Shown: one piece after another, positions 28,130 through 48,375 of the stretch
Numbering within the stretch: the first letter of the stretch is position 1
How the letters are laid out: every line of letters begins with the position of its first letter
NCBI GenBank assembly: GCA_963789985.1
Contig: CAWBNA010000019.1
Location: 464,464-528,463 of the forward strand
Length of the DNA: 64,000 bases
Origin: an uncultured Bacteroidales bacterium
Lineage (GTDB): Bacteria > Bacteroidota > Bacteroidia > Bacteroidales > VadinHA17
Direction: 5' to 3'
Program-made: the position numbers and the translations under genes
Notes under the pieces: generated by a model
Database searches by the model: none
The model's input: only the letters and a program-made list of their open reading frames with translations
What the model was told of the DNA's origin: nothing

Positions 28130-28202
28130 GCCTCCTTAGCTCAGTCGGTAGAGCAGCTCATTCGTAATGAGCAGGTCGTGGGTTCGAGTCCCATTGGAGG
28201 CT
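28130..28202 (+). tRNA. tRNA-Thr (anticodon CGU)
   Basis: The cloverleaf was folded by hand: acceptor GCCTCC(T)/(T)GGAGGC, D-arm GCTC-AGTCGGTA-GAGC, anticodon arm GCTCA-TTCGTAA-TGAGC with CGT central, and T-arm GTGGG-TTCGAGT-CCCAT. No CCA is encoded. Confidence 0.9.
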
Positions 28203-28203
28203 C
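28182..28203 (+). repeat. attL-like core (3' end of tRNA-Thr)
   Basis: It is identical to 48354-48375 over 22 nt. Confidence 0.75.
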
Positions 28204-28465
28204 CTAAAACGATCTCATTTTTTTCATGACCGCTTAAAATCAAGGATTTCAGGCGGTTTCCTTTTTTACAGGTACTCAAAATGTACGCCAGAACTCCTAG
28301 AATAGGGTGAAAAATCGATACCTCTTTATAAAATGCTAATTAGGTATCGCTAAACTCTGTAACTCTCTGTTTATTTTGCATTTGATTGCAGCCTTTTGCA
28401 TGATGGCGAATGCTTAATTGAGGCGAAATTTGTACATAAAAAGAGTCCTTTAAATATATGCTATT

Positions 28466-29515
28466 ATGAAAAACAAAATTGTTACTCACTTTTATGTGAG
28501 AGAAGAGAAGAAGGATAAAAAAGGAGAAGTCCCTATTTATCTGAGAATCACCATCAATGAAGAAAGAGCAAGCCTTTCAACCGATCGAAGAGTAAATCCT
28601 GAATTATGGGATAAAGCTGCTGAGGGAGTTGCTGGGAGAAGTGAAATTGCAAGAGTAATCAATACCTCACTGAATAATCTTCTAAGTAAGGTAGAAAAGT
28701 ATTTCGGTAACCTTGATGTCAAAGATGAACTTGTTTCCGTTCATCAGATTATAGCTGAACTTAAAGGTAAGGGGATTAATCAAATGACAGTTATTAAGGC
28801 GTATGAATATCAAATTAAAAAGATGGAAGAACTTTCAGGAATTGATTATGCAATTACCACTATCAATAAGTACAGATATTCTTTGAATAGTCTAAAAAGG
28901 TTTTTGAAAACTGAGTTCAACAAAACTGATATTAGACTTTGCGACTTGGATTATAGATTCATTGAACGCTATCACAAGTATTTAAGGACATCTGAAAACT
29001 TAATGCATAATTCAGCAGTTAAGAACATTAAGAATCTTTTCAGAATAATAAATATTTCTATTACAAACAAGTGGATTAATATTAATCCATTTAAAAGCTT
29101 TAGTTGTAATTTTATTGATGCTAATAGGGGTTATTTGACTGAAGAAGAGATTGAAGCATTGTACAAAAAGGAATTTGCAATTAAGAGACTAGCCAAAGTA
29201 AGGGATGTTTTTATCTTCCAAATTTATACAGGGCTATCATATTGCGATTTGGCAAGATTAACTGATGATAGCATCGAAATCGGCATTGAGGGCAAACGAT
29301 GGATCGTATTAAATCGTAAGAAAACAGGAACTAGATCAAGCATTCCAATTTTACCAAGAGCTCAGGAAGTCCTGGATAATTACAAAACTGATCCATTATG
29401 TATCTCCGATCATAAACTTCTTCCGGTCTGCACCAATCAGCGAATGAACGGGTACCTGAAAGAGATCGCAGATTTATGTGAAATTAAAAAGACTCTAACA
29501 ATTACAAAAAGCTGA
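28466..29515 (+). pseudogene. Bacteroides-type tyrosine recombinase/integrase, 3'-truncated (catalytic HxxR and Tyr regions missing)
   Basis: The N-terminal arm-binding and SAM-like domains are typical (KIVTHFYVREEKKDKKGEVPIYLRITINEERASLST...). The first catalytic Arg region RDVFIFQIYTGLSYCDL is present. The ORF stops at ...EIKKTLTITKS, where homologues normally continue with the LTxHxxRHT box. Confidence 0.65.
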
Positions 29516-30338
29516 ACGTAAGCAGGCTGTAATCAAGCTTGCCTTACAAGGTCCTTCGGGATCAGGGAAAACTTACAGTTCATTGCTAATCGCTTATGGA
29601 CTTGTTGGAAACTGGAATCAGATTGTGGTTCTGGATACAGAGAACAATTCATCACACCTCTATTCACATCTTGGCAATTACAACGTTCTGAGCCTTTCTG
29701 AGCCATTTTCTCCTGAAAGGTATATCGAAGCATTAGAGTTTTGTGAAAAGGCTGGAATGAGAGCTATAATCATTGACAGTATAAGTCAGGAATGGGAAGG
29801 AAGCGGAGGCATTATTGAAACCCACAGCAACATGGCGGGGAACTCTTTCACAAACTGGAATCGTATGACTCCACGTCATAATGCCTTTGTCCAGAAGATG
29901 CTTCAGTCGCCTAGCCATATTATTGCTACAATAAGGTCAAAGCAGGATTATGTTTTGACTGATAAAAACGGCAAGATGGTTCCAGAAAAGGTTGGACTTA
30001 AGGGTGTCACAAGAGATGGGATGGATTATGAATTCACTCTGGTCTTCGACCTTGATATTAAACATCAAGTGACGACATCAAAAGACAGGACGAATTTATT
30101 TACCAATCCTTTACCATTTACGATAACTGAGCAGACAGGCAGTAAAATAAGAATTTGGTGCTTAGGAGAAGAGCTCATTAAGAATGCCGAGATGCAAATC
30201 AATGAAGCAAAAACAGTACTGGAATTACGCAGTATCCTGCTTAAGTATCCGACTCTCAGAGACAAGCTAGATCCACTTTGTATTCAGAGGAAGAAGGAGA
30301 TTGAGAGTATTGTAACTGATCGTATTGTCGAACCTTAA
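29499..30338 (+). pseudogene. AAA_24/Sak4-like P-loop ATPase lacking a start codon
   Basis: The frame is open from 29499 and encodes ...AVIKLALQGPSGSGKTYSSLLIAYG (Walker A) and AIIIDSISQEW (Walker B). No ATG/GTG/TTG lies upstream of the P-loop, and the first possible start (TTG 29583) is after it. Confidence 0.55.
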
Positions 30339-30352
30339 GAAACAGAATAGAA

Positions 30353-31330
30353 ATGGAATTAATAAATGTACAAAATAGCATCATGCCTGATGAAGCAAAG
30401 GTTGTCGAAACTTCTGACAATAGGTTCATCCTGGCTAATACGGAGCCGATTTCTTATGGCGACCTGAAGCATAAGTGCATCATTCCTGTCTTCAGTAAAG
30501 ACAATGAGAGTACTATTTCACATTCAGAGTTCATTGATGCAGTTGGACTAGCTGTTGATAAATTCTTTTCTGCAGAGGATATACTTCATCCAGCAATAAG
30601 AATTTCACATCCAATCAAGGGGCGTATTCCTGAAGCTATGGGGAAACCTGCTGAATTATTGCTTGAACAGGAGAAGACGATTTACTACGAGAGATGTGCT
30701 TTCCTTTATGAAGTGCCTTCAATCTATTCTCTGGTGAATGGTAATAAACTTTCACTGTCAATTGGAGGAGTAAGAGCTTACAATAGCGAGAATCTTTACG
30801 GAAAGAAAACCGAGGAACATTTCAAGGTCTTCATAGGATTCAAAAATCATGTGTGCATTAATTTGTGTATTTCAACAGATGGCTTCCTTGATGATTTGAG
30901 AGTTATGTCAGTACAGGAGCTTTTTAACAGAGTATTTCAGCTTCTGACAAGATTTGATTCTGAAAGGCAAATCAATCATCTGTCCGCTCTATCAGAATAT
31001 TCTCTTAGTGAGCACGAATTTGCTCAATTAGTGGGTAAATCAAGACTGTATCAATATTTGCCAATTAAGGCAAAGAAAACATTGGATGCTCTAATGCCAA
31101 TCTCAGATACTCAAATTTCAACAGTCGGCAGAGACTATTATCAGGACAAGTCATTCTGTAGGGAAGATTCAGGCGATATTAACCTATGGAAGGTGTATAA
31201 TCTGTTTACAGGAGCTACTAAAAGCAGTTACATAGATACATTCCTTGACAGAAATGTTGCTTCACTGCTGTTCATTAATAGTCTGGTTAGGCACATAAGG
31301 AATGAGAAGCAGTCATGGTTTCTGACATAA
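30353..31330 (+). CDS. hypothetical protein, DUF3871-like (tentative)
   Basis: A 325-aa ORF starting 15 nt after the ATPase gene. The pairing with an AAA ATPase and motifs such as FKVFIGFKNHVCINLC recall the Bacteroidota DUF3871 family. This assignment is from memory only. Confidence 0.45.
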   Translation: MELINVQNSIMPDEAKVVETSDNRFILANTEPISYGDLKHKCIIPVFSKDNESTISHSEFIDAVGLAVDKFFSAEDILHPAIRISHPIKGRIPEAMGKPAELLLEQEKTIYYERCAFLYEVPSIYSLVNGNKLSLSIGGVRAYNSENLYGKKTEEHFKVFIGFKNHVCINLCISTDGFLDDLRVMSVQELFNRVFQLLTRFDSERQINHLSALSEYSLSEHEFAQLVGKSRLYQYLPIKAKKTLDALMPISDTQISTVGRDYYQDKSFCREDSGDINLWKVYNLFTGATKSSYIDTFLDRNVASLLFINSLVRHIRNEKQSWFLT

Positions 31331-31416
31331 GGAAAGCCACATCACATTCTATATTGTGGGCAACCAGATTCTGTAAGCTGAACACACAAAAATTATTATG
31401 TAATCAATTAAATTTT

Positions 31417-31668
31417 ATGAGCAATGAAGAATATCTCAAGGAGCTGTTAAACTGGGTTTCATCTGATAGCCTATTGGTAATTGATAAGAAAGGTCTTCTA
31501 AGACGCATTTACTGCCCATTCTGGGTAGTCTGTCTTGTAGACTTTCCGGATATCAAACAAGGTGACCGGGTCTCTGTAGAAACTGTTAAATTGACTGTAG
31601 AAGTCAAGGAAGTCTATATCATCAGAGGAACGGCATACTACATTCTGTACTTTAAAATCACCATATAG
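31417..31668 (+). CDS. hypothetical small protein (83 aa)
   Basis: The ATG at 31417 (MSNEEYLKELLNW...) lies within listed ORF 31315..31668. No family was recognised. Confidence 0.35.
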   Translation: MSNEEYLKELLNWVSSDSLLVIDKKGLLRRIYCPFWVVCLVDFPDIKQGDRVSVETVKLTVEVKEVYIIRGTAYYILYFKITI

Positions 31669-31769
31669 GATTATGTCTAGCTGCATTTTATTTGCTGTTG
31701 TTATCAGATAGTTCATTTCAACTTTAAAATCTAAAGAACCCCTGAAAATCAACAGTGCAAAAGCCATTC

Positions 31770-32015: not shown

Positions 32016-33494
32016 ATGAAAATGAAAACTTTATTGAAATTTTCCATCTTTTTATTAGTAATCAACTTTACTTGTCAAATCCTAATTGCACAAAAAGCAA
32101 GCGATGTATTAGAAAATGGAATTCAAGTGAAGTCTGATGAAAAGTTATTTCTCCAATTTGAAGGTAAAGTACTAAAATATGCACTTGCAAAAAGCTTTCA
32201 AGACTCATCTAATCCGCCTGATTTCATGACTTTAGGTGATTCGGCTATTTTTCTTGTATCAAAGAAGGGAGTTAATGTCTATTTAAAGCCATTAAATCCA
32301 CTTAATTACAGTTTTAGCACTGAAAACAAAATAGTGATCGATCCTATTAATGAAGCGGCCGCAACTGCGATGCAATCTATAATCGATGCTCTTGGAACAG
32401 TTGGTGGTACCCCTACTGGAGTACCTTCTGGAAAAAAAACTAGAGAACATGTAGTAGCTCAACCACAAAATAAAGTATTATGTGAAATATTTCAAGCTTT
32501 ACAAAAAAGAGTTGAATCAATTCAAACCGAATTAATAGATAATAAAAAGATCAGGATTAATGAATTATTTAAGAAGCTTAAGGAACTTGGTTTTGTTGAC
32601 GAAAAGAATACTAGAGATTCCTTAATTAAAATTAAAGCGAGTATTGCTGAAATTGAAAATCATTTTAAAGTAATCGATAAATCAATGATTGAGTTTAAAA
32701 AAGATATTGAAAACTATAATTGCGATTACCCTGATATATTCACTGCCAAATATATCTTTAATTCGATTCTAAAAGAGTTTACAATGACAATAGAAGAGCA
32801 GAAAAAAAGGCTAGAAAACCTCCAAAAAGCATTCGATCTTTGTGAGAAAGCTCAGCAAACAGCAAGCACTGGTGGTGGTGAAGATGGATTGCGATGGTGT
32901 ATAAAACTAGATGAAATTCCATCTTCAGAAGGTAAAATATCTGAGTACACAATTACAATTAAAAAAGGCGGCTATGATATATCAGAAAAAGGGGAAATTG
33001 TAAATATTGAATCTAAGGATGTTTTGAAAAGAACTGTTAAGATCAGAAAATTCCAAAAACTCGTGCCGGAAGTATCCGCAGGTATAGTGTATACTTTTTT
33101 TAGTTACAATACTTATGGAACAACATCCGACTCAACTGGACAACAACATGTGGCTTCTCCTACTAAGAATAAGGTAGCGAATATTAATATTTCAACAATG
33201 ATTAACTGGAATTTTTATAGCCCAAATAGTTTTATTCATCCTTTAATTCAAACTGGCGTCGGCATAAATTCTGGAATTCCATCTTTCCTAGTTGGATGTG
33301 GTCTAAGATTCAGCAATAACGCAAAAAACAGAATAAGAATTACTGGCGGCTTGGCAATGACTTGGACAAAGGAATTAGATAAGCTGAAAGTTGGAGACAA
33401 AGTATCAGGCACAGCAGATATTGATAACGACTTGAAATACAGCGGCTCTCCAAAATTTAGCCCCTATATCGCTTTACAATACAATTTTAAATAA
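32016..33494 (+). CDS. hypothetical secreted protein with central coiled-coil and beta-rich C-terminus
   Basis: A 492-aa ORF with signal peptide MKMKTLLKFSIFLLVINFTCQILIAQ. It has a Lys/Glu-rich helical middle and a C-terminus of beta-barrel-like segments ending YIALQYNFK. Confidence 0.55.
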   Translation: MKMKTLLKFSIFLLVINFTCQILIAQKASDVLENGIQVKSDEKLFLQFEGKVLKYALAKSFQDSSNPPDFMTLGDSAIFLVSKKGVNVYLKPLNPLNYSFSTENKIVIDPINEAAATAMQSIIDALGTVGGTPTGVPSGKKTREHVVAQPQNKVLCEIFQALQKRVESIQTELIDNKKIRINELFKKLKELGFVDEKNTRDSLIKIKASIAEIENHFKVIDKSMIEFKKDIENYNCDYPDIFTAKYIFNSILKEFTMTIEEQKKRLENLQKAFDLCEKAQQTASTGGGEDGLRWCIKLDEIPSSEGKISEYTITIKKGGYDISEKGEIVNIESKDVLKRTVKIRKFQKLVPEVSAGIVYTFFSYNTYGTTSDSTGQQHVASPTKNKVANINISTMINWNFYSPNSFIHPLIQTGVGINSGIPSFLVGCGLRFSNNAKNRIRITGGLAMTWTKELDKLKVGDKVSGTADIDNDLKYSGSPKFSPYIALQYNFK

Positions 33495-34330: not shown

Positions 34331-34414
34331 CCGATAAATTCCATCAGGAGACGCCGCTTTTTTATTTTCTACTGCTGAACTTGCTTAATGGAATTATCAC
34401 TTGGTATAATAAAA

Positions 34415-34445
34415 TTGATTTTGGTTTAAACAAGGTGTAACTTTG
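34415..34445 (+). promoter_or_regulatory. promoter, TTGAC-N18-TAACTTTG class, upstream of FISUMP lipoprotein
   Basis: The sequence reads TTGAT tttggtttaaacaaggtg TAACTTTG, preceded by TATAATAAAA, 46 nt before the ATG at 34491. Confidence 0.5.
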
Positions 34446-34490
34446 AATATGACCAACTCTGAGAGATATTTAATTCTAAAAAATACTACC

Positions 34491-35804
34491 ATGAAATGCT
34501 TTTTAAAAATCATGATCATTGTTTTTCTTTCCGCAGGTTTTATTGCAACAATTCAGTCCTGTAAGAAGAAAGACACAATACCTTCTGTGACGACTGTGAG
34601 CGTTTCGGGTATTACCCAGACAAGTGCAGTATCGGGAGGTAATGTGACAAGCGATGGAGGAGCTGATGTAACTGCCAAAGGAGTATGCTGGGGAACCTCT
34701 CACAATCCGGCAACAGGCTCTAACGAAACAGACGACGGCAGCGGTACCGGTTCTTTTACCAGTAATTTGACAGGCTTGACGGCAAATACCACTTACTATG
34801 TTCGTGCGTATGCCACCAATAGTCAGGGAACAGGTTATGGAAATGAAGTTACGTTTAATACAAGCCAGATAGCCCTAGCAACTCTTACAACAATAGATGT
34901 GACTGGAATTACACCAACGACAGCATCCTCAGGAGGAGATATTGCAGATGACGGAGGCGGAACAATCACCGCCAGTGGTGTCTGCTGGAGTAATGCGCAA
35001 AATCCGACAATAGCCAATAATTTTACGACAGATGGATCAGAATCAGGCGGCTATTATAGCACCATAACCGGCTTAGCTGCAAACACGACTTATTATGTTC
35101 GAGCCTATGCTACCAACACTGCAGGAACTGCCTATGGGAACCAGGTGAGTTTTACGACCACAGGAATCAGTGCAATTATTTTTAATTCTAATTTGACTTA
35201 TAGCACTGTTTCAGATATTGATGGGAATGTTTATAAGACTATCCAGATTGGCACTCAGACTTGGATGGCAGAAAACCTCAAAACAACTAAATATAATGAT
35301 GGTACTCCTATACCTAATGTCACCGATTTAAGTGCTTGGGACACCCTTGCTTCCCCAGGATATTGCTGGTGCCTTAATAATGCTTCAACATACAAAGCTG
35401 TTTACGGCGCTTTATATAACTGGGATGCAGCAAACATGACAAAATTATGCCCTGCAGGATGGCATGTTCCATCATCTGATGAGTTGAATACATTAGTGAC
35501 GTACCTTGGTGGGGTTGATGTTGCCGGTGGTAAGCTGAAAGAAACCGGTACTACTCATTGGAACAGCCCAAACGGAGATGCCTCAAATGAATCAGGCTTT
35601 ACTGGTCTTCCTGGTGCAGAGCGTGACATTACTAACGACTTTGGAAATGGTACTTGGATTGGCACCTTTGGTAATTGGTGGAGTACGACTTACGCGGATC
35701 CTGTGAGTCACTATGACCTAGAATTGAATTGGGATGATGGTTCGGCTTGGCTTGGTGGTATGCCCAATGGCGAAGGACTTTCCGTTCGCTGTATACAGAA
35801 TTAG
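34491..35804 (+). CDS. FISUMP-domain lipoprotein with two FN3/Ig-like repeats
   Basis: The ATG at 34491 gives MKCFLKIMIIVFLSAGFIATIQSC (lipobox-like Cys). There are two ~85-aa repeats (...GVCW.TSHNP...TANTTYYVRAYATN..GT.YGN.V.F.T). The FISUMP core DIDGNVYKTIQIGTQTWMAENLKTTKYNDG...ALYNW...CPAGWHVPS...GLSVRCI follows. Confidence 0.8.
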   Translation: MKCFLKIMIIVFLSAGFIATIQSCKKKDTIPSVTTVSVSGITQTSAVSGGNVTSDGGADVTAKGVCWGTSHNPATGSNETDDGSGTGSFTSNLTGLTANTTYYVRAYATNSQGTGYGNEVTFNTSQIALATLTTIDVTGITPTTASSGGDIADDGGGTITASGVCWSNAQNPTIANNFTTDGSESGGYYSTITGLAANTTYYVRAYATNTAGTAYGNQVSFTTTGISAIIFNSNLTYSTVSDIDGNVYKTIQIGTQTWMAENLKTTKYNDGTPIPNVTDLSAWDTLASPGYCWCLNNASTYKAVYGALYNWDAANMTKLCPAGWHVPSSDELNTLVTYLGGVDVAGGKLKETGTTHWNSPNGDASNESGFTGLPGAERDITNDFGNGTWIGTFGNWWSTTYADPVSHYDLELNWDDGSAWLGGMPNGEGLSVRCIQN

Positions 35805-35836
35805 TTAAACCATACAGATAATAACTTATAACCAGT

Positions 35837-35866: not shown

Positions 35867-36876
35867 TACTTGATAAATAACCATTCGGGTCTCTCTCTTA
35901 ATCATCCGTCCATCCAAAACCTTTTTAAATAGGACGGACATTTTAATATTGACAAACATCTTTTTTATCCCAGTATATTACTCAGATGCCCACAAATATT
36001 ACAACTAATCATAGATTAATCTTCATATTTGGCTGTAGGATTGTAAACTATTAATTGCCCCCAGACGTCCATTTCAGACGTACCTGATACACATTTACTC
36101 TCAGGGTTTTAGCAACACGCAGCAGCACGAATAACCTTCCGGTATACTGGTCATCGGTTGAGAATTATGTACTCAGAGCCGACGCTTTTATTTATGCTAT
36201 ACTGGTATAGCCCTACTTCCTCCGAAGAGGCTTTATCTCTGTTTTTAGCGAATGCTTCTCCTACATTCTTCAGAACTGTGTCAAAACTGATTCTAGGGCT
36301 TCTTTTATTGTAATCTTTGGAGGGATCTTTTGCACTTTTCTGACAGTACAAAGATAAGCATTAATATATTAATAGCCAAATTTTTACGCGAGGTTTTAGT
36401 TATACCAGAAAACGATTTCTTATTTCACAAATAGAATATTATTGGTCATTCTAAAGGAGGTGATCAAGTAAATGTTTATTCAGAAAACAAAGTTGAATCC
36501 TCTTTACTTAGGGTTTAATCCGGTAAAATATTTCATTATTTTTCATCTCCCTTCCCCAAGGATTGTTTAACTTCCGTTGATTTGTGAAGAGTGAAGATCA
36601 GGCAATAGATACATTTTTTAAGGATACTATGAGAGAAGAATATTATTATTGTGACTGATGGGGCATTGCATTATTAAGATTGAATAATATTGTAGAAATA
36701 AGTATATCACGTCAATGGCAAACTTAACTATATCTGACAAGGGATTTCTTTAAACAGTAAATTTTATACTTCTAAAAATGAGTTATCTGCAATGATATCT
36801 GATTTTCAACTAACTGATAATCAGTGGATAAATTAGTTTAGGTTATAAATTGTCTCAGTTTTAAAATCAAAGTAAT

Positions 36877-37455
36877 ATGGAAAAACTTATGTTCATTCAA
36901 ACTGTTTCAGAGGCAGAGGCTGAGGGCAAGCTCCGCGAGATCTACGAAGGAGACCGAACGAGTCTGGGGTACGTACCTAATCACGCTAAGGTTTTCAGTC
37001 TACGTCCAGAGGTGTTGGAAGCTTGGCGAGCCTTTCAAGGGAGTATTCGAAAAAACCTGAGATTGCGGCCTTATGAGTTGATCACTCTTGCGGCTGCAAT
37101 GGCATTGAAATGCCGATATTGTCTCCTTGCTCATAGCGCAATCTTGATCAAGAATGGGGTTAGCGTGGATCAGTTGCGTAGGATCCTGATAAATTTTTAT
37201 GACGCAGGACTGGAACGAACTGAAGTCGTGATGATGGAGTTCGCGCAGAAAATTATCCGGAACGCCAATGAAATATCACAGACTGATATCGATTCGCTGC
37301 ATGAAGTGGATCTCAAAGACGTCGAAATTCTCGACATTACACTGACAGCAACAATGCGTAGCTTTGCCAGTAAAACATTCGATGCGATGGGAGCGGAACC
37401 AGACTCTGTTTACAACGAATTAGAGCACCAACTAAATGATTTGCTTCCTAAATAG
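36877..37455 (+). CDS. carboxymuconolactone decarboxylase/AhpD-like peroxidase-related protein
   Basis: A 192-aa ORF. The CRYCLLAH motif (CxxCxxxH) is typical of the CMD/AhpD fold. The gene is visibly more GC-rich than its neighbours. Confidence 0.6.
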   Translation: MEKLMFIQTVSEAEAEGKLREIYEGDRTSLGYVPNHAKVFSLRPEVLEAWRAFQGSIRKNLRLRPYELITLAAAMALKCRYCLLAHSAILIKNGVSVDQLRRILINFYDAGLERTEVVMMEFAQKIIRNANEISQTDIDSLHEVDLKDVEILDITLTATMRSFASKTFDAMGAEPDSVYNELEHQLNDLLPK

Positions 37456-37880: not shown

Positions 37881-38624
37881 ATGACTGAAATAATTGAACT
37901 ATTCGAGAAAAAAGTATTTGAGATTTATTCAATCGAAAAGTTAACAGCTCTTCAAGACAATGATTACTCTTTTGAAGGAGTAAATGTTCTAGAAATGATT
38001 AGCCTATCAAGGAAATATTCTCTCCCAAATCCGTCTTTCAACGATATGAAACACACATGGGATATAATAAATTGTAATTCAGACTTAAGATATTTTACAG
38101 CGTTGCTCTTCCTCTACAAACCCTTTATTAACAATCCAATTAATGAAAGCGTATATTTTGAGGAACGCCTTCTCTTTACATACTTTCAAAATAGGTATGA
38201 CCATAGATACAGCCAATTTGCGAGTATCTGCTTTGAAAAACTATATAATTATTGTGATAGAATTGGGGACGTATTGGCGAACCGTTATTTCGATAAATTT
38301 CAGAATCCTCAAAATATTTATTTTCCTAAAGTAATCGATAAATTAAGATTAGATAGTAATATTCAGAATGACTCATTTTTTAAAGAAATAATCATTTATC
38401 GAGATAATGAATATAAGGAGCATAATGAAAAAAGAAGAGAAATTGTTCATTATCATCAATTTGAGACAAATTACAGGTATGATTTCACCCTTAATTCAAC
38501 GAATAAAGAAGAAATAACTAAACTTTGGGATTTTAAAAAAAACCTTCCTGAATATTTTAAAAAACAGCTTGATAAATCCAACCAATTGTTTTTAAATACA
38601 TTTAACTTCCTTAATAAAAGATAA
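37881..38624 (+). CDS. HEPN-motif protein (Rx4H: RREIVH), unknown subfamily
   Basis: A 247-aa, very AT-rich, all-helical-looking ORF. RREIVH is encoded at nt 38433-38450. FEKLYNYCDRIGDVL resembles Abi-type HEPN families. No partner gene is apparent. Confidence 0.45.
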   Translation: MTEIIELFEKKVFEIYSIEKLTALQDNDYSFEGVNVLEMISLSRKYSLPNPSFNDMKHTWDIINCNSDLRYFTALLFLYKPFINNPINESVYFEERLLFTYFQNRYDHRYSQFASICFEKLYNYCDRIGDVLANRYFDKFQNPQNIYFPKVIDKLRLDSNIQNDSFFKEIIIYRDNEYKEHNEKRREIVHYHQFETNYRYDFTLNSTNKEEITKLWDFKKNLPEYFKKQLDKSNQLFLNTFNFLNKR

Positions 38625-38884: not shown

Positions 38885-39550
38885 ATGCCAATCCCAGGTA
38901 AAACAATTTTCGGACCTCATCTGACTGAGCCTAGATCAGTTGATTTTGGAGAAGTTCGCCAAATTTCTGATGATGGTTTAAAACTTAACTATCTAAAACT
39001 GAGGCTTGAAACTTTTCTCATTAGTCAAATAAATCCTATTTCGGATAGAAATAAAGTTTACTCACCATTTCCATTAACTGTGCTGACATGCACAGCAGTT
39101 GAAACCTTAGGGCGTGTTGTCTTTCCGGTTGCAGAATTTGAAAAAGATAGTAAAAAGAGCAAGGAAATCTCAAAAATTGTCTCTGTTCCCATTTATGCTA
39201 TGCTTGACAAAAAGCTTTCGAGACAATTAACAAAAGAATTTAAAAAATTAATGGGCGAAAAATGGCCTAATGAAAACATTAAAAACATTTCAAGCTATGC
39301 GGAACTTTTTCATAGTTATTTAAGGAATTCATTTATTCATGGATATAGAGTAAAAAATGTTCTTTTAAGCGCAGAATTAGAATCTGGATGGGATTTAATT
39401 GATGGTTCGTTAGTAATTAATCCATACTGGTTTTGGGATCAGTATAAGCAAGTATTTAATAAATGTTTTGATAAAGTATTTGATAATAAAAAGAAGAATA
39501 ATTCATATAAGAAGAATGCTTTAGAGTTCTTTAACAGACTGATAAATTAA
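38885..39550 (+). CDS. HEPN-motif protein (RNxxxH: RNSFIH)
   Basis: A 221-aa ORF. ELFHSYLRNSFIHGYR (nt 39323-39340 encode RNSFIH) fits the canonical HEPN RNxxxH endoRNase motif. Confidence 0.5.
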   Translation: MPIPGKTIFGPHLTEPRSVDFGEVRQISDDGLKLNYLKLRLETFLISQINPISDRNKVYSPFPLTVLTCTAVETLGRVVFPVAEFEKDSKKSKEISKIVSVPIYAMLDKKLSRQLTKEFKKLMGEKWPNENIKNISSYAELFHSYLRNSFIHGYRVKNVLLSAELESGWDLIDGSLVINPYWFWDQYKQVFNKCFDKVFDNKKKNNSYKKNALEFFNRLIN

Positions 39551-40069
39551 TATACACTAACGCTCAGCAACGTATATAACCAATTGCTGGCTGAGGGTTT
39601 GCTAAGGACTACTCTTTTGGTTACTTTGTACTAACTCGACCACAGAGCACCCTGAATACGCAACTGGTCATACCCGCGAACGTTGGATGTAATTTAAAAT
39701 GAACAACTACTATAAAAATAAGCTTAATGATTTTTTCAATGATTTGAGTAAAAAACTGAAAAGTAAGGCTATTCTAAATAAAAAGGATATAAAAAGTCTT
39801 TTCCTAAGCACACTGGATTTGCATAATATTCCTTATCCTGCTTCAGAAATTGAGGAATTCTTTTTACATCCAAAAATAGTTGCGGACTTATTGATTGAGT
39901 TAATAAATAACGATTATTTAACACCCGATGATAGGTTTAAATTATATCCAACGTTTACTGAAATCCGTAAGAAATTAAGGAAACCGAAATCTTCTTATTC
40001 TTACAAGTTAAGAGTTCTTGCACCAGGGGGATTATATCCTAATCTTGAAATAAAGAGAGGATATTCAAG

Positions 40070-40078
40070 ATATTTTAT
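40070..40078 (+). repeat. target-site duplication (left) of IS4-family element
   Basis: ATATTTTAT, identical to 41507-41515. Confidence 0.85.
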
Positions 40079-41506
40079 CACTGTTATCCGATTAATAATT
40101 TAGATTCGTAATTGACTCCCATAAGTATCTGATTATCAATCATCATATCTTTCATTTAAAAATTGACCCCCTGCATATTAAAGCATAATTGTAACCCGGG
40201 AGGGATTGGTTTACTCTTAAATCTTCTTTTTGTGCTCCGCAGCAGCTCCTTAACATCCAGCATGCTTATTAAGTGTATCCGGACCAATGATGCTACCACT
40301 GAAAAGGCTTTCTTTGCCTGCGCGATCTTTTGAGTCACAGTCAATAGCAGTTGGGCTATTAATGTGCACCAGACCTGAGTATAGATGGCATTTTCGTTCT
40401 CTCCGTAAAAGTAATGTAACTGGAAGTTCTGTTTCATTTTCTTGAACAGTATCTCAATACCCCATCTTTTCTTGTAAAGTAATGCCACATCTTCAGCTTC
40501 AATATCAAAGTTATTTGTCAGAAAATCAAAATATCGGTTCTGTTCATCTTGATAACTGACCTTTCTCAGTTTCATTTTGAGTTTGGTCTTAATATCTTGC
40601 TTGCCGTCTTCTTTTTCAGGATGATATTCCAGTTCGATGATCTCATCCCTTAACACTTTTGCCTGCCCTGCCTTACGATAATGAACTCGTTTAACCTCTT
40701 TAACCGTAAATACAGCATTCCTTTTCATCCGGGTGACAAAATATACCTGTTGTGTGGTCCAGAGCGTAAACTGTTGATAATAATTATAGGCTTTATCAAA
40801 GACTATCATGCTGTTAGATATCAGTTCCAGGCTTTTTAAGAACTTTTGATCATTGACCTTTGCTGCTGTCATTTTAATAAACCTACCAACCGATTGAACC
40901 GCATCAATAAGCATATGGACCTTCATTCCGCCTTTCTTCCTGCCATCTCCTTTGGGATTACGGCCAACTCCCTTTAATATGTCACTAAATAACCGGATAG
41001 TCGTTGAGTCGATAATAAGTACCTCTTTAAAAGTCAATCCAAATGTCCGGCTGTCCGATAAAAAATTCTGATAATGTTTTATCAGGCTAAAATACAGATC
41101 TTCAAAAAACTTGCTGCTCCTGTTGCGTAAACCATCACATGCCGTACTCTTAGCTGGTGCCTGATCCATACCAAGATGATTAAGCTTGCCGCCCATTGCA
41201 CGCAGACCTTCGCAGACTTCAGTCATCGAATCGCACCGGCTTAATATCCCGAACAGCATCGTAAAAAGGTGAGTCCGCGTTTTAAATGACTTGTAATAAT
41301 AATCACTCTCGTGCTTCTTAATCAACCCCTTTATATTGACCTTGTCAACTAAATTCATTATCTGTTTGAAAATCGGCTGTCCGACTAATTTTATTTCTGT
41401 AATTTTACCCATGTTGTACTTGATTTTATGCAAAGACCAAATTACAACATCGGGGGGAACCCTCATGGGATACCCCCGTTTTTATTATTTTAGTCGGACA
41501 CTAGTG
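40079..41506 (-). mobile_element. IS4-family insertion sequence (1428 bp)
   Basis: It has imperfect terminal inverted repeats, CACTGTTATCCGATTAATAAT (left) and CACTAGTGTCCGACTAAAATAAT (right, reverse complement). It is flanked by a 9-bp direct repeat ATATTTTAT and holds a single transposase ORF. Confidence 0.85.
40156..41412 (-). CDS. IS4-family DDE transposase
   Basis: The ATG at 41412 (MGKITEIKLVGQPIFKQ...) starts the ORF. DDE-type motifs are LIIDSTTIRL and MIVFDKAYNYY, and the Y-x2-R-x3-E-x6-K signature is YKKRWGIEILFKKMK. Confidence 0.85.
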   Translation of the reverse strand: MGKITEIKLVGQPIFKQIMNLVDKVNIKGLIKKHESDYYYKSFKTRTHLFTMLFGILSRCDSMTEVCEGLRAMGGKLNHLGMDQAPAKSTACDGLRNRSSKFFEDLYFSLIKHYQNFLSDSRTFGLTFKEVLIIDSTTIRLFSDILKGVGRNPKGDGRKKGGMKVHMLIDAVQSVGRFIKMTAAKVNDQKFLKSLELISNSMIVFDKAYNYYQQFTLWTTQQVYFVTRMKRNAVFTVKEVKRVHYRKAGQAKVLRDEIIELEYHPEKEDGKQDIKTKLKMKLRKVSYQDEQNRYFDFLTNNFDIEAEDVALLYKKRWGIEILFKKMKQNFQLHYFYGENENAIYTQVWCTLIAQLLLTVTQKIAQAKKAFSVVASLVRIHLISMLDVKELLRSTKRRFKSKPIPPGLQLCFNMQGVNF

Positions 41507-41515
41507 ATATTTTAT
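41507..41515 (+). repeat. target-site duplication (right) of IS4-family element
   Basis: ATATTTTAT, identical to 40070-40078. Confidence 0.85.
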
Positions 41516-42468
41516 TCAAAATCAGCAACCAATATTACTGACTAAGGACAAAAATTATAAGGATATCTTCTCTAATAGTTCAATAATAAATTGGTTAACA
41601 AAAAATGAGTTAAAGTTTGCTACAGCTATAATGTGTGCGCCAAAACAAGGAATCTTTCATTTAGATTTTACAAACTATAACACAATAAATATAGATTGTG
41701 ATTGTATAGATGCTATACCAGATGGATTAAAAAACTTATTTCTTCGAGAATATTTTGAGATCAATAAACGATTTACACCAATTGGTTTTCGTGCATGGCA
41801 TAGGCAACCCATGCCTGACTTAATGGCATACGAATTTTCTTCTTACAATGATTCGATTGAATATTTCAACAAGCTTTATGATAATTTTAAAATATCGGAC
41901 CATCTTTTATTAAGGACATGCAATTATTTTGTCAAAGCTATAATGCATTGGAGCAATCAGATTTATATTGAAGAGGCTATTGCGAATTCCTTTTTCTGCC
42001 TTGAAGGTTGTTTACATCTGATTCAGAAAAAGTATGGCGATCACAACTTAAAGCTTAATATGAAGCTTTTAAATGAAGTATTTAAGAATGATATACCCTA
42101 TGGAGAAAATCTCTTTGAGTTTATCAAAGAAGGATATGAGAAAAGAAATACATTAGTTCATGCAGAGCCAGAATGGGGAGCTGATTGGAGTCCATTTTTG
42201 ACAGCAGAAGATTTTTATGAGTATTTTAAACTTTGTCGAGAATTACTTAATTTCATTCTCATTGATAGACAATTAGATGATTTATAATATAAACTACAAG
42301 CAATACATGGTATAAGCAAAATCAGGGCATGCAGCAGGTTTAAACGTTTTACCCCGCACTAAAGTTTGTTCTCCGAAATAGATATGTGCACCAAAGTCCA
42401 ACAATACCAATACATCCGACTTTTTTATACAAGGCTTTAAAGCCATTCATTTTTATTTAATAATATCT

Positions 42469-42532: not shown

Positions 42533-42991
42533 ATGAAACAATCAGATATAAATATATCCGAGGTAAAACTTATTTACCGAACTAAGATCAAAGCTTCAGA
42601 GAGGCTGCAGGTAAAATCCTCAAAGGATGCATTTGATATCTTTATGGAGCATTGGGATCTTGATTCAATAGAACATGTCGAGGAATTTAAGCTCATGCTA
42701 TTAACTAGATCAAATAAAGTCCTGGGAATAGCATCAATCTCAAAAGGCGGGATTTCTGGCACAGTCACGGATGTGAGGGTCATTTTGCAGTATGCAATTA
42801 AAGCCAATGCCAGCGGCATCATAATTTGTCATAACCACCCATCAGGCAATTTAAAGCCAAGCGAATCTGATCTGACAATCACAAGAAAGGTTAAGGATTC
42901 AGGTGCTTTGATGGATATTCAGTTATTAGACAATCTGATAATCATCCCGGAAGGCAGGTATTATAGCATGGCGGATGAAGGAATAATTTAG
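42533..42991 (+). CDS. radC: RadC-like JAB/MPN-domain protein
   Basis: A 152-aa ORF. The JAMM motif IIICHNHPSGNLKPSESD (HxHx7Sx2D) is present, and the size is that of mobile-element RadC proteins. Confidence 0.8.
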   Translation: MKQSDINISEVKLIYRTKIKASERLQVKSSKDAFDIFMEHWDLDSIEHVEEFKLMLLTRSNKVLGIASISKGGISGTVTDVRVILQYAIKANASGIIICHNHPSGNLKPSESDLTITRKVKDSGALMDIQLLDNLIIIPEGRYYSMADEGII

Positions 42992-43281: not shown

Positions 43282-43899
43282 ATGTTACCAGGACCAACAA
43301 TTATAATATCTTGCCCATTATGTGGGCAGTATGCAAAGAAAAAGACCTTAATCTCAGGCAATACCTTTGGTGCAGTTTTATGGTCTGACGGCAAAAGAAT
43401 AGCACCGATGTTACCAGAATTTCCAAGCTTAGTTCTTTGTAAGAAATGCGATCAGTTTTATTGGGTAAAAAATGCTAATAAAGTTGAGGAAATCAGCAAT
43501 TACTCAGAAATAAAAGATAAATGGGGGAATATTGATTTCGTTGAATTCCCGACCTTTCATCAGTATTTTATTGCTTTAGAAACGATTTCTAACGAGAAGT
43601 TTATCAGAATAAACATCTGGTGGAGCTTTAACGATTATTTCAGGAATAATCATGAAAATGATATTACACCGGATATGCAGAAGCTGAATACTAAAAACTT
43701 AATTGCTTTATTGAAAATTCTGGATGAATCTGACAACAATGAGCTGCTAATGAAGGCTGAGGTACTTCGTAATTTAGGACAGTTTAAAGAGAGCAAGCAG
43801 CTATTTGACAGAATAAGTGATGACGATATGGGCTGGGTAAAAAAGAAACTTCTGGTAGAGATAAATAAGCATAATACACAGGTGTTTCAATTGTATTAA
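43282..43899 (+). CDS. hypothetical protein with N-terminal zinc-ribbon (CPLCG...CKKCD)
   Basis: A 205-aa ORF with two CxxC pairs 39 residues apart and a helical C-terminus. No family was recognised. Confidence 0.45.
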   Translation: MLPGPTIIISCPLCGQYAKKKTLISGNTFGAVLWSDGKRIAPMLPEFPSLVLCKKCDQFYWVKNANKVEEISNYSEIKDKWGNIDFVEFPTFHQYFIALETISNEKFIRINIWWSFNDYFRNNHENDITPDMQKLNTKNLIALLKILDESDNNELLMKAEVLRNLGQFKESKQLFDRISDDDMGWVKKKLLVEINKHNTQVFQLY

Positions 43900-44274
43900 A
43901 TATGAATGCCGGTATGTTAAAATTCCTACCTATTCTAACCCGTTTTCAACCAGAATGGATTTATACAGATTTAATATTATAGCTAAATAGCATAAATCAT
44001 TGCTCTCAGATTCTGATTAGTAGTGGCTGGAAAATCAGGTTGAACTGAGCACTCAGTACCGGAGTACTTTGAGCATATGATTCCGAATGCGATTGAGCAT
44101 CTGAAACCTGAACATAAATATTACAATATCAAAGGGGAATGGTAAATAAATTTGATGTATATATGAATATTCTTTCAGTTTATTCTTATTCTTATTGAAT
44201 TGTTCAATATTTCCAAACCAGCACTAATCACCATTACATATTCCAATATTTAAGCATAGCTGTTTAAAATAAAA

Positions 44275-44305
44275 TTGACTTCAGCTTTTTGCTGGCGTAA
44301 CTTGC
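44275..44305 (+). promoter_or_regulatory. promoter, TTGAC-N18-TAACTTGC, upstream of small OM beta-barrel gene
   Basis: The sequence reads TTGAC ttcagctttttgctggcg TAACTTGC, preceded by TTTAAAATAAAA, 56 nt before the ATG at 44361. Confidence 0.45.
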
Positions 44306-44360
44306 ATCATATTTCTGACTTACTGATATTTATTTTTTCTATTAACCAAATTTCAATCAA

Positions 44361-44921
44361 ATGAAAACATTTTGTAAAGCCAAAATAATTGTCGTATTAC
44401 TGTTACTTTGTACAAATGGTATACAGGCACAAACGGCACAGATAAAACTTTATCAGGTTGTCTCAGCGGAAAATTTAAATTCAAAACCAGGATTGATAAA
44501 CATCACTGAGGTTAATATGGGAATTGGATTGTTCCAAACTAACCGGGATTACTCAAAAAGGTTTTATAATATTTCAGACATTTTTGGGATTGGCATCCTA
44601 AAAAATCTGATAGGAGGGATCGGCATAGGAGTTTCATTATATAACGGCGGCAGTCTGATTCCTCTTTTCGTGGATCTTAGGTATTTTATAAACATCGGGA
44701 AAATAAGTGTTTTTGCTTTTGGTGATGGTGGAATACTTTTGAACTCTGCCAAAACCACTGGTGGAACAAAAATTCTGATAAACCCGGGCGCAGGAGTGGC
44801 TTTACCTGTCAGCAAAAATCTGTCAGTAAACCTTGGGGCAGGCCTGTTCGTTAACCTTATGAAAGATTATGCTACCGACAGCTTCGTCAGTATTAAGGCT
44901 GGAATGACTTATTATTTTTAA
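44361..44921 (+). CDS. small outer-membrane beta-barrel-like protein
   Basis: A 186-aa ORF with signal peptide MKTFCKAKIIVVLLLLCTNGIQAQ. It has Gly-rich amphipathic strands and a C-terminal GMTYYF (terminal Phe). Confidence 0.5.
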   Translation: MKTFCKAKIIVVLLLLCTNGIQAQTAQIKLYQVVSAENLNSKPGLINITEVNMGIGLFQTNRDYSKRFYNISDIFGIGILKNLIGGIGIGVSLYNGGSLIPLFVDLRYFINIGKISVFAFGDGGILLNSAKTTGGTKILINPGAGVALPVSKNLSVNLGAGLFVNLMKDYATDSFVSIKAGMTYYF

Positions 44922-45023
44922 AAAAAGAATATTAAAGATGGTTAAGTATATAATCACTGATGGGCAATTTAGTCCGGCCAGCTATGGTCAAGGTCATTGG
45001 CATCTCCTCTTAGATAAATAAAA

Positions 45024-45054
45024 TTGCTATAAGCCTTTTTATAAATTAAATTTG
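45024..45054 (+). promoter_or_regulatory. promoter, TTGCT-N18-TAAATTTG, upstream of TIR gene
   Basis: The sequence reads TTGCT ataagcctttttataaat TAAATTTG, preceded by GATAAATAAAA, 24 nt before the ATG at 45078. Confidence 0.45.
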
Positions 45055-45077
45055 ATACTGAAATAAATAAACATCAG

Positions 45078-47222
45078 ATGTCAGCCATTATTGAAGGATA
45101 TAATTATGACATCTTCATCAGCTATCGCCAGAAAGACAACAAACACGATGGCTGGGTAACAGAGTTTGTAGATAACCTGAAGGGAGAACTTGAATCGACA
45201 TTTAAAGAGGAAATTAGTGTTTACTTCGACATCAACCCACATGATGGACTTTTGGAGACACATGATGTTGATGCCTCTTTGAAAGATAAACTTAAGTGCC
45301 TTGTCTTTATCCCAATTATTTCCCGCACATATTGTGATCCCAGGTCATTCGCATGGGAGCATGAGTTCAAAGCTTTTATTAATGAAGCCTCCCAAGATCA
45401 GTTTGGATTAAAGGTAAAACTGCCTAATGGGAATGTTACAAGTAGGGTATTGCCAGTTCAGATACATGAACTTGATGCTGGAGACAGGACGATTATTGAA
45501 AGTAAACTTGGAGGATTTTTAAGAGGTATTGAGTTCATCTATAAGGAACCCGGAGTCAATCGACCCCTTATGGCAAATGAAGATCATCCAGATAATAATC
45601 TCAATAAAACTTTCTATCGGAACCAAATAAACAAAGTTGCTAATGCTGTAAAAGAGATTATTACTGCAATAGCACATCCTGGACAAAAGACTGAAGGGAT
45701 TTTAAAAGAGGTTGTTAATATAAAACCTAAAAAGGCAAAAAATCTGAAAATAAAAACCATTGCTGTATCTGTTATAATACTTTTACTTATTATTCTTGGT
45801 TATTACTTAATAACCACACTTACTAAACAAAAAGAACAGCGTGCAAAATCTGTTGCTGTTTTACCTTTTATAAACGACAGCCCTAATGATTCGACCACTT
45901 ACTTCATGGATGGCGTTATGGAAGAAATACTCACGAATCTGCAGACAGTCAAGAATCTCAGGGTTATTTCCCGTACCTCTGTTGAACAATATAGAAAACA
46001 AACCAAATCCGTCCATGAAATTGCGAAAGAACTGGGTGTGAATTACATTGTGGATGGTAGCGGACAAAAATCCGGCAATAGTTTTCGTCTAAGGGTAAAA
46101 TTAATTAGGGCAAATAAAGAAAGTAATATCTGGGCAAAGTCATATGATCAGGATAATCCTGAAGCTAAAGATTATTTCAGCATACAGAGCCAGATAGCCC
46201 AGGCAATAGCAACACAATTAGAAGCAGTAATAACGCCTCAGGAGAAACAGCTTATTGAAAAAACACATACAGCAAACCTATCCGCTTACGATGCTTTTCT
46301 TAAAGGTGAATTTTATCGGAGGAAACGAACTCAAAATGATCTCAAGACTGCAATGAAATATTATCAGATTGCTTTGGAGAAAGACCCTAAATATGCCCGA
46401 GCTTATTGTGGTATTGCTTACGGCTGGTCTGAGTTTTTGGAAATGGGTTATATATCTCCATCCGAGGGATTACCAAAAGAGTACGAAGCATTAATGACTG
46501 CAGAAAAACTCGACAGTACTCTTGCTGATGTTCATTATGGTCTTGCTGTTTACACATGGAACAAATGGGATTGGAAAAGCAGTGACTCTGAATTTCAAAA
46601 AACTATCAGAATTAATCCCAATAATGCTGAAGCATATGCAGGCTACTCACAATTTCTAATTGCATTAGGTCGTTCGGAAGAAGCAATGAAACAGATAGAT
46701 TTGGCGCTTAAACTGGATCCAAATAATCCACTGATTAATGGTCGCTTCAGCTTTGATTTATTATTTGTGCAGCGATATGATGAGGCTATCTCTGTTAGTC
46801 GTGAAGCGCTTAAAAAAGATCCTGCCTGTGGTTCCGGATTATATGCTTTACAGTTTGCCCTTCATTTGACCGGCAGATATGATGAAGCGTTGGAACTTTG
46901 GAAGACAAACTATTTCGTAGGCTATCCAGGTTTTGTTCATGCTTTTGATAAAGGTTATGCTAAAGCAGGCTATATAGGAGCACTAAGTTTTGAGGCGGAT
47001 ACTCTTGTTGCACAGTCAAAAGCTGCATATATTAATCCATTTGATATTGCTATTCTTTATGTCTGTTCCGGGAATAAGGAGCGAGCTTTAGATTATTTGG
47101 AAGGTGGTTTTGAAGTACATGATGTTAATTTGACTTTTTTGTCATTGCCAATATTTGACTGTCTGCATAACTCACCTCGCTATCAAGCTTTATGTAAGAA
47201 AATGAACCTTCCTTATAGATAA
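45078..47222 (+). CDS. TIR-domain / single-TM / TolB_N-like / TPR-repeat protein
   Basis: A 714-aa ORF. The N-terminal TIR signature is YDIFISYRQKDN...LVFIPIISRTYCDPRSFAWEHEF, with no signal peptide. The TM helix is IKTIAVSVIILLLIILGYYLITTL. The next domain is SVAVLPFINDSPNDSTTYFMDGVMEEILTNL...VISRTS...LGVNYIVDGSGQKSGNSFRLRVKLI (COG5616/TolB-N-like). About 300 aa of TPR-like repeats follow. Confidence 0.7.
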   Translation: MSAIIEGYNYDIFISYRQKDNKHDGWVTEFVDNLKGELESTFKEEISVYFDINPHDGLLETHDVDASLKDKLKCLVFIPIISRTYCDPRSFAWEHEFKAFINEASQDQFGLKVKLPNGNVTSRVLPVQIHELDAGDRTIIESKLGGFLRGIEFIYKEPGVNRPLMANEDHPDNNLNKTFYRNQINKVANAVKEIITAIAHPGQKTEGILKEVVNIKPKKAKNLKIKTIAVSVIILLLIILGYYLITTLTKQKEQRAKSVAVLPFINDSPNDSTTYFMDGVMEEILTNLQTVKNLRVISRTSVEQYRKQTKSVHEIAKELGVNYIVDGSGQKSGNSFRLRVKLIRANKESNIWAKSYDQDNPEAKDYFSIQSQIAQAIATQLEAVITPQEKQLIEKTHTANLSAYDAFLKGEFYRRKRTQNDLKTAMKYYQIALEKDPKYARAYCGIAYGWSEFLEMGYISPSEGLPKEYEALMTAEKLDSTLADVHYGLAVYTWNKWDWKSSDSEFQKTIRINPNNAEAYAGYSQFLIALGRSEEAMKQIDLALKLDPNNPLINGRFSFDLLFVQRYDEAISVSREALKKDPACGSGLYALQFALHLTGRYDEALELWKTNYFVGYPGFVHAFDKGYAKAGYIGALSFEADTLVAQSKAAYINPFDIAILYVCSGNKERALDYLEGGFEVHDVNLTFLSLPIFDCLHNSPRYQALCKKMNLPYR

Positions 47223-48353
47223 TTATTGTTAATATCAACTTTGCATATCTTTATCTGGAAGCCAAAAAGGCTGTTGCCGGGCAGAAGAATAATTGATTTA
47301 CAATCAAAGAATGGCAAACACACAAATAAACATAGGAAGGTTGACTGTGTATTGATTAGGGGTGGCTAATAATAAAGGAAGACAAGGAAATTGATCCCCA
47401 GCTCCATTGGAAAGAATTCTTTTTCCCCTCATAAGTAAAAAACCTGAAAGGGAACCCAGATTCTTATCGTAATATATCCCCTGAAACCTCTGTTAACCCT
47501 TAATTCGGCAGACATATCACCTTGGGTGGATGTGCACCTTTAACACCACATCTTTATCCTTTACAACAGGGGGTAAAAGGCTATTTATTATCCTTGCTTC
47601 CCGTACGGAAGCATTACTTTGAGACAGGTTTCTATTGGCAAAATTCCTTAGGAGTTTTATGAAATCTATATGCTTAAATATATCTCCTTGAAGGTGGTAT
47701 CTACATCAATGTGAGAAGATATTCCTTTATAATAGGGCAAAGAACGTCTGTAAGAATTGATTTCTTGAAAAGATACCCTAAATTTGCGCATCAAGTTGAA
47801 GAAAGATGCAGATAGAGAATTGGGGAATAACTTATTAAAAACTGAAATTATGGAAAAATTATCAACAAGAGAAAGTCATTTAAAAAGAGTGGGAAACAAG
47901 AGAAAAGCAATGATGAAAGGTAAAGAATATCATTTCTCAAACAAGAAGTCTTCTTCAAAGTTTAGAAAAATTCTGGAAAACAACTGCTTAATAATAAAGC
48001 AATTAAGTGGAGAATCACAGAATAGGCTTTTGTTATTATAGTGTAAGTACTCTGTATTTGATTGATATTGTTAAGGATATTGATAGCCCATGTCGGTTTA
48101 GAAGTATTGGAAGCCACCCAGAATAAGAGCGTAAAATGCCGAAACAAAATATGGGAATATACTGTAAAGAGTATCTGACACAGAATGAGAATTTCTATCA
48201 ATAGCCAGAAATAAGGTTACGCAAAAAAAGCTGTTGCCAATCAAAAGAATAATTAACTTTGTCATTGCAGATGTAAGCAGAGAGGAGTATTTTTCGAGAC
48301 CTGTAAAAGCTGTATCTCTGTAGTAAATTGATTATAAGCGAAGTGAAAAAATA

Positions 48354-48375
48354 GTTCGAGTCCCATTGGAGGCTC
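48354..48375 (+). repeat. attR-like copy of tRNA-Thr 3' end
   Basis: GTTCGAGTCCCATTGGAGGCTC is identical to 28182-28203. No tRNA body lies upstream of it. Confidence 0.75.

Follow-up and report, generated by a model that had tools for sequence, protein, structure and literature searches.

The question raised by this locus is whether the DNA that separates a tRNA-Thr gene from an orphan copy of its own 3' end, in an uncultured member of the Bacteroidales, arrived as a single site-specifically integrated element, and whether such an element could still move. We analysed a window of 64,000 nt of contig C19 of the source genome (G000), and all positions below are window coordinates. The source is a metagenome-assembled genome (MAG; a 5.1-Mb assembly in 39 contigs, which was also the genome searched) of a genus known solely from MAGs of soil, peat and sediment, and the nearest flanking-gene identity among its relatives is 77% at the amino acid level. 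G-numbers denote genomes of the same genus, and L-numbers loci from metagenomes or relatives' genomes. Our reading, to which we assign a probability of about 0.88, is that the 20,150 bp between two copies of a 22-bp repeat are one tRNA-integrated element, from a family of elements with common arms, and that the copy seen here is now a deletion-derivative fossil.

Results

A 22-bp direct repeat of the tRNA-Thr 3' end

The tRNA-Thr(CGU) gene is intact and is the sole tRNA that ARAGORN recognises in the window (as tRNA-Thr(CGT)), in agreement with Rfam. A first-pass annotation of this DNA had pointed out that the last 22 nt of the gene, GTTCGAGTCCCATTGGAGGCTC, recur perfectly further along without a tRNA body, and both observations hold: the copies are identical at 22 of 22 positions (attL and attR cores in Table 1), one lies within the tRNA gene and the other is an orphan, at which ARAGORN finds no tRNA. 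The repeat is exactly 22 bp long, because the bases flanking the two copies differ on each side. No further copy with up to 3 mismatches occurs in the window, and none was obtained in 100 shuffles. The annotation had allowed that the 22-mer might be a common repeat elsewhere in the genome; the search of the whole assembly found it only twice.

Both arms belong to a family of integrative elements

The left arm of the island contains a terminator-like hairpin at 28228-28258 (fold of -14.1 kcal/mol, z=-2.4, followed by UUCCUUUUUU) with a U-tract behind it, and then the conserved ACAGGTACTCAAAATGTACGCCAGAACTCC. Homologues of positions 28204-28300 immediately follow a tRNA gene in three other genomes, tRNA-Glu(TTC) in G146 and G103 and tRNA-Gln(TTG) in G081, and the integrases that adjoin the arm in these three genomes are 62-68% identical to that of the window. 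The arm is also homologous to the sequence after tRNA-Thr in G001, G005 and G007, where no integrase accompanies it; these three and L069 are remnants at tRNA-Thr. Such integrase-less copies prompted the idea that 28204-28300 is resident DNA and that the true insert starts further in, an idea that was rejected since the same sequence follows tRNA-Glu and tRNA-Gln, where it adjoins intact integrases.

The right arm tells a matching story at the other end. Its counterpart in the G146 element is the final 135 nt ahead of the tRNA-Glu core repeat, and this arm also stands in front of the cores of L139, L140, L172, L179 and G009; the order in G009 is a related right arm, the exact Thr 22-mer, a terminator and tRNA-Gly(CCC). 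Two 22-nt copies of the tRNA-Glu 3' end, 13.4 kb apart, delimit the G146 element, which contains a full integrase, RadC and a TPR gene, the last two ordered as are their homologues in the window. Its second repeat is followed by a left arm again, so that the locus is a tandem array, and another array of the family is formed by L143 and L153 on one contig. When the 22-nt tRNA-Glu core is taken together with 20 nt of the left arm, a 42-nt repeat results (L051/L052, on contig C6 of G146, at oriented coordinates 1158 and 14515), which marks two stacked family elements, the second without an integrase in its first few kb.

A scan of metagenomes with the left-arm hairpin motif returned 65 contigs. 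The motif sits about 35 nt past the 3' ends of at least eight kinds of tRNA: Glu(TTC) in 13 contigs, Gln(TTG) and Asn(GTT) in 9 each, Arg(CCT) in 3, Thr(CGT) in 2 (3 with L155, whose tRNA was not typed by ARAGORN), Lys(TTT) in 2, and Arg(ACG) and Gln(CTG) in 1 each. Otherwise it follows a bare core, itself preceded by the conserved right arm. The core always starts with GTTCG (GTTCA in one decayed copy), right after ...AAAATA or a close variant, and the window is no different. The same arms thus accompany independent insertions, and the family is widespread in uncultured environmental Bacteroidales, with arms in common and 22-nt tRNA cores that differ. Among 2.9 million IMG/VR contigs the motif had no match.

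Few members keep an intact integrase: among the 30 loci with at least 1.6 kb past the motif, the gene is full in 2, broken in 8 and absent from 20, so that 28 of the 30 are without an intact copy. The intact backbone, as found in L163 and L182 and also seen in G081, comprises the integrase, two HTH_17 genes, an AAA_25 helicase-like or a primase-like gene, a 116-aa open reading frame (ORF), AAA_24, DUF3871 and a small ORF, and the cargo beyond this backbone varies; the DUF3871 protein of the window is 84-87% identical to those of G081, L163, L166 and L182. Intact relatives are about 13 kb or larger and carry genes of replication and regulation. Within the replication module of L163, 4384-7059 from the left-arm motif (Ga0315543_1001952), lies a gene for an 891-aa Avs-like protein with Mrr_cat and STAND NTPase domains, which suggests that active elements carry defence cargo.

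Truncation of the integrase and a deletion of about 4.3 kb

According to the first-pass annotation the island starts with a tyrosine integrase gene. The gene is present, but it is truncated ahead of the HxxR box and its product is predicted to be inactive. The ORF of 349 aa shows Arm-DNA-bind_5 and SAM_5 alone in Pfam and matches the XerC profile at positions 13-189 of 295; it ends in ...EIKKTLTITKS and a stop, and the HxxR box, the second His and the catalytic Tyr are missing, PF00589 being undetected. What lies beside the att site is therefore not an intact tyrosine recombinase (R..HxxR..Y). Homologues from congeneric genomes, with open frames of 413-445 aa, align to its residues 1-345; that of G146, the one homologue for which this is shown, continues ...KKPLTTHIARHTFAT...TQIYSKV and carries PF00589.

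The truncation coincides with a junction at which codon ~345 of the integrase runs into codon 2 of AAA_24, the homologies stopping and starting within a few bases. AAA_24 and DUF3871 lie 4.3 kb downstream of the integrase in G081 (86% amino acid identity), with a 228-aa ORF, two HTH_17 genes, a 477-aa primase/helicase-like gene (phrog_28855) and a 116-aa ORF in between. This spacing and gene order imply that one deletion took the catalytic centre, the excisionase-like genes and a replication-type gene from the copy in the window. Judged from its sequence, the island is an immobilised deletion derivative: having lost the catalytic end of its integrase and the excisionase (Xis)/replication module, it would be incapable of excising itself.

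Table 1. Features of the tRNA-Thr island and its surroundings (window coordinates).
Feature	Position	Strand	Basis
tRNA-Thr(CGU), intact, target gene (attB host)	28130..28204	+	ARAGORN; Rfam RF00005, 65 bits
attL core, 22-bp direct repeat, final 22 nt of the tRNA	28182..28203	+	exact-match search
Left arm of element	28204..28465	+	homology to elements at other tRNAs
Tyrosine integrase pseudogene, N-terminal 345 codons kept	28466..29515	+	Pfam, XerC profile, homologues
Deletion junction (~4.3 kb), ...ACTCTAA joined to CAATTACAA...	29496..29501	+	nucleotide homology
AAA_24 P-loop ATPase gene without ATG	29499..30338	+	86% aa identity to G081 copy
DUF3871 gene, family backbone	30353..31330	+	Pfam E=1.6e-118
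Small conserved backbone ORF, 117 aa	31315..31668	+	homologues after DUF3871 in L163, L166, L182, G081
492-aa cargo ORF	32016..33494	+	sub-threshold ATG17_like match alone
FISUMP (Fib_succ_major) lipoprotein gene	34443..35804	+	Pfam; 87% nt paralogue on contig C27
Segment with 87% nt copy on C33	36525..37746	+	whole-genome comparison
CMD/AhpD-like gene	36877..37455	+	Pfam
HEPN_Cthe2314-family gene	37881..38624	+	Pfam 33.7 bits, cut-off 27.1
221-aa ORF, Rx4H motif alone	38885..39550	+	motif
383-aa Rx4H-motif gene split by insertion sequence (halves 39699-40078, 41516-42287)	39699..42287	+	insertion sequence removal
Insertion sequence, 1428 bp	40079..41506	-	DDE_Tnp_1 + DUF4372 transposase 40156-41466
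RadC-like JAB gene	42533..42991	+	74% aa identity (tblastx) to G146 RadC
Two ORFs, 205 aa and 186 aa, second with signal-peptide-like N-terminus	43282..44921	+	no profile matches
714-aa protein, weak TIR-like N-terminus and TPR repeats	45078..47222	+	profile search
ORF-free decayed DNA between two copies of TPR-gene 3' end	47223..48220		G146 comparison, ORF scan
Right arm of element, ending ...GTGAAAAAATA	48221..48353	+	81% identity to G146 right arm
attR core, second 22-mer copy	48354..48375	+	exact-match search
Variable accessory DNA right of attR	48376..64000		gene and core-copy scans

Cargo genes, insertion sequence and ORF-poor stretches

The cargo list of the first-pass annotation fares well in Pfam for the AAA ATPase (AAA_24, assigned at 29583-30338), DUF3871, FISUMP, CMD/AhpD-like, insertion sequence (IS; DDE_Tnp_1) and RadC genes, and less well for two of its labels. 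Only one of the three supposed HEPN genes passes as such (HEPN_Cthe2314), the two others carrying the Rx4H motif alone, and the gene called TIR encodes a confirmed TPR protein whose TIR_2 match is weak and below the cut-off (E=0.062, 14 bits against 28). PADLOC gave no credible defence-system match on the cargo, a PDB sequence search with DUF3871 and AAA_24 returned nothing informative, and a literature search for DUF3871 gave nothing relevant.

The IS, which has a second and 100% identical copy on contig C25, is flanked by a 9-bp target duplication, ATATTTTAT, at 40070-40078 and 41507-41515, and its removal in silico together with one copy of the duplication yields an open frame of 1152 nt. 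It arrived later than the island's deletion, within a cargo gene.

Two long stretches had been described as devoid of intact ORFs, and they are indeed ORF-poor (35.8-36.9 kb and 47.2-48.35 kb). The first contains a repeat of about 270 bp with near-full copies on three other contigs, while the second is made up of a duplicated 3' remnant of the TPR gene and the right arm of the element. The dispersed repeat (36526-36793) is non-coding, with 88-92% identical copies on C30, C33 and C35 and a partial one of about 85 nt on C22, and may be an element resembling miniature inverted-repeat transposable elements.

Some of the cargo belongs to families with many members. Four FISUMP paralogues lie within 30 kb of each other (34408-35809, 55205-56029, 59985-60668 and 62206-63591). 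The TIR-like/transmembrane/TPR family gives over 80 paralogous nucleotide matches (66-95% identity), spread over about 20 contigs, with a second copy nearby, at 51776-53142, broken into two frames. The TIR-like/TPR gene also has homologues in the G146 element, at its right end, and in G001 and G007, where they follow tRNA-Thr.

The spacer between tRNA-Thr and tRNA-Gly

Beyond attR, up to the end of the window, the genes are again of an accessory kind: an epimerase-like gene, a FAD/BBE oxidase, the broken TIR-like/TPR paralogue, three FISUMP genes, SDR, a low-molecular-weight phosphatase and DUF362. The next tRNA gene, tRNA-Gly(CCC), lies just outside the window (window-equivalent 64440-64513), at 36.2 kb from tRNA-Thr. 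In many relatives about 90-110 nt separate the two tRNA genes, and this holds too for the species nearest by the flanking M48 gene. Since tRNA-Gly is the adjacent gene in relatives, the right flank of the island is not ancestral chromosome, and the difference in spacing places the island at the tRNA-proximal side of a more extensive variable region. Older accretions may account for the 16 kb beyond attR; between 48376 and 64440 we found neither integrase nor arm remnants, nor a third Thr core with up to 5 mismatches.

The closest approach to an empty site comes from G004, in which the 66 nt next to the tRNA show homology to 48376-48441, with the offset preserved (z=9.9), giving an empty-site-like junction. 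A search for the exact right-flank protein found no record.

Repeats of tRNA ends are seen around tRNA-Gly as well. On C19, in the segment 528903-529600 (window-equivalent 64440-65100), a 17-nt partial repeat of the tRNA-Gly(CCC) 3' end lies about 165 nt downstream, and another 3' end resembling that of tRNA-Gly, ATTCGAGTCTCGTTTCCCGCTC, about 530 nt downstream of the gene; these partial repeats look like integration scars. At 4886-5085 of L061 (JBJKPQ010000185.1), a locus of a related MAG, the 3' end of tRNA-Thr(CGT) recurs three times ahead of tRNA-Gly at a spacing of 87-88 nt, in an array that is gene-free and made of att-like units.

Discussion

Integration at the 3' end of tRNA-Thr would have been the work of a tyrosine recombinase, which recombined the gene itself (attB) with a copy of its last 22 nt carried by the element (attP). 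The left arm of the element would thereafter supply the tRNA 3' end and a terminator-like hairpin, and the orphan copy at 48354 would be the displaced original 3' end. A later deletion of about 4.3 kb would have removed the catalytic end of the integrase and the Xis/replication module, after which the IS would have inserted in a cargo gene and parts of the island would have become free of ORFs. The recombination event itself, like a replicative excised stage in the intact relatives, is something we infer; the first-pass proposal of site-specific integration that rebuilds the tRNA 3' end finds its support in the homology of both arms to an integrative-element family. The left-arm hairpin now likely terminates tRNA-Thr, and such a putative service to the host could explain why it outlives the rest of the element. 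To the earlier reading our analysis adds that the island is, by its gene content, an immobilised deletion derivative, that it belongs to a large tRNA-hopping family, and that it forms the proximal part of a 36-kb spacer.

Several observations weigh against this reading. Homology to the right flank stands directly after the tRNA in only 1 of 13 genus relatives (G004), and the flank matched there is itself not the ancestral neighbour of tRNA-Thr. The exact 42-mer expected of an empty site has no match in JGI metagenome contigs, and no conspecific empty junction was found, the exact M48 protein leading only to two 1.4-kb contigs that both end at the tRNA. None of the 65 metagenome loci is a circular contig. 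The genome being a MAG, a mis-join is formally possible. The compositional signal is modest, with a GC content of 35.6% in the island and 40.1% in the genome, at the 10th percentile of random 20-kb chunks. Finally, the FISUMP, TIR-like/TPR and CMD genes have close paralogues elsewhere in the genome, and part of the interior may therefore stem from recombination with these residents and not from the element.

The simplest alternative takes the second 22-mer for a coincidental repeat, or for a fragment of a decayed duplicate tRNA, with no link to integration. It draws on nothing beyond the lack of a directly observed empty site, and we give it almost no weight: no shuffle out of 100 produced a match, the genome holds only two copies, and the second adjoins the right arm of the family, whereas neither a coincidental repeat nor a stray tRNA fragment would come with both arms. 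A prophage remnant, instead of a non-viral integrative element, is very improbable. It is true that AAA_24 matches phrog_1366, RadC phrog_10276 and the 477-aa protein of G081 phrog_28855; however, neither the window nor the intact relatives examined gave a capsid, terminase, tail or lysis match, the left-arm motif does not occur in the IMG/VR contigs searched, and the intact relatives, with their replication and regulation genes, can be as small as about 13 kb. A third alternative concerns present mobility. With its two 22-bp cores perfect, its arms well conserved and tandem arrays present in the family (G146; L143 with L153), the island could in principle still be excised or moved whenever a relative that encodes Xis and an integrase specific for tRNA-Thr(CGU) integrates in tandem, as a cis-mobilizable element (CIME) would. 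We consider this unlikely, because the genome has no other integrase of the clade (a single match at E<=1e-40) and no other copy of either arm, and because neither the 150 genus genomes nor the 65 metagenome loci yielded an intact Thr-specific integrase.

The alternative that comes closest to our own reading extends it: the true unit would be the whole 36 kb between tRNA-Thr and tRNA-Gly(CCC), put together by one integration after another at tRNA-Thr, with the 20-kb element as the newest layer and the one nearest the tRNA. The spacing of about 90-110 nt in related species against 36.2 kb here, the accessory content of 48.4-64.4 kb (38.4% GC, with the broken TIR-like/TPR paralogue) and the tRNA-proximal accretion of the tycheposon model (10.1101/2020.12.28.424599) all speak for it. 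Set against them are the missing third Thr core and the missing integrase or arm remnant to the right of attR, and the variability of a spacer whose arrangement differs within the genus, several genomes having tRNA-Gly in inverted orientation, so that other processes could have filled it. On balance the idea is plausible, with odds slightly short of even.

In mechanism, the element corresponds to the classical tRNA islands of lambda-type (arm-binding) tyrosine integrases. As in these, the repeat equals the tRNA 3' end, the integrase lies beside attL, the element provides the new tRNA 3' end, the GC content is below the genome mean and the cargo is accessory or defence-like; unlike them, the window has a truncated integrase, no excisionase and a cargo partly paralogous to resident families. 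Since both att sites are intact, the island is formally a CIME-like element. CIMEs, defined as decayed integrative and conjugative elements (ICEs) or integrative and mobilizable elements (IMEs), are known together with tandem accretion from ICESt1/ICESt3 of Streptococcus thermophilus (PMC5704250). The likeness lies in the attL and attR sites kept while the recombination genes were lost, and in the tandem arrays of the family; the difference is that no conjugative or mobilizable ancestry is evident, Pfam matching neither a relaxase nor a type IV secretion system in the ORFs of the window or in those tested from G081, G146 and L163.

NBU1 and NBU2 are Bacteroidota elements that occupy the 3' end of tRNA-Leu or tRNA-Ser by means of IntN-type tyrosine integrases, with a core of 13-14 bp as against 22 bp here. 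They are listed as IMEs with MobP relaxases (PMC5704250), whereas we found no Mob/relaxase profile match and no oriT module here, and the backbone consists of two HTH_17 genes, AAA_25 or a primase-helicase, AAA_24 and DUF3871. Phage-inducible chromosomal islands and P4-like satellites resemble the intact relatives in having an integrase, AlpA/Xis-like HTH_17 genes, a primase/helicase module, a size of 13-20 kb and defence-like cargo. They differ in that no packaging or capsid-redirecting genes are recognised here and no helper phage is known; the module in question is wholly lost from the window copy.

The tycheposons of Prochlorococcus provide a model of tRNA-proximal accretion (10.1101/2020.12.28.424599). 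Like them, the present family combines related integrases at different tRNA 3' ends with helicase/primase genes, tandem stacks and remnants. The likeness is one of organisation, and the element is not filed as a member; the phylum is different, and the cargo is defence-like or envelope-related here as opposed to nutrient uptake there. We tentatively propose, as a possibility somewhat less probable than not, an undescribed tycheposon-like family of Bacteroidales, with near-identical arms around a swapped core of fixed length (22 nt), at least eight tRNA genes colonised, and a hairpin perhaps kept by the host as a tRNA terminator.

Taken alone, the island leaves current understanding unchanged. 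It does offer a clean and well-delimited case of accessory DNA entering, and then fossilising at, a tRNA gene of an uncultured Bacteroidales lineage, with a cargo that comprises, among others, HEPN-motif genes, a TIR-like/TPR protein, RadC and lipoproteins. The two arms are simple markers for such islands in metagenomes. Swappable 22-nt cores, conserved arms, tandem stacking and integrase-less remnants explain the hypervariable tRNA-Thr/tRNA-Gly spacer of the genus. If the tycheposon-like family is real, it would provide a natural series for the re-targeting of arm-binding integrases, and for the way in which variable regions next to tRNA genes are assembled in Bacteroidales of soil and sediment.

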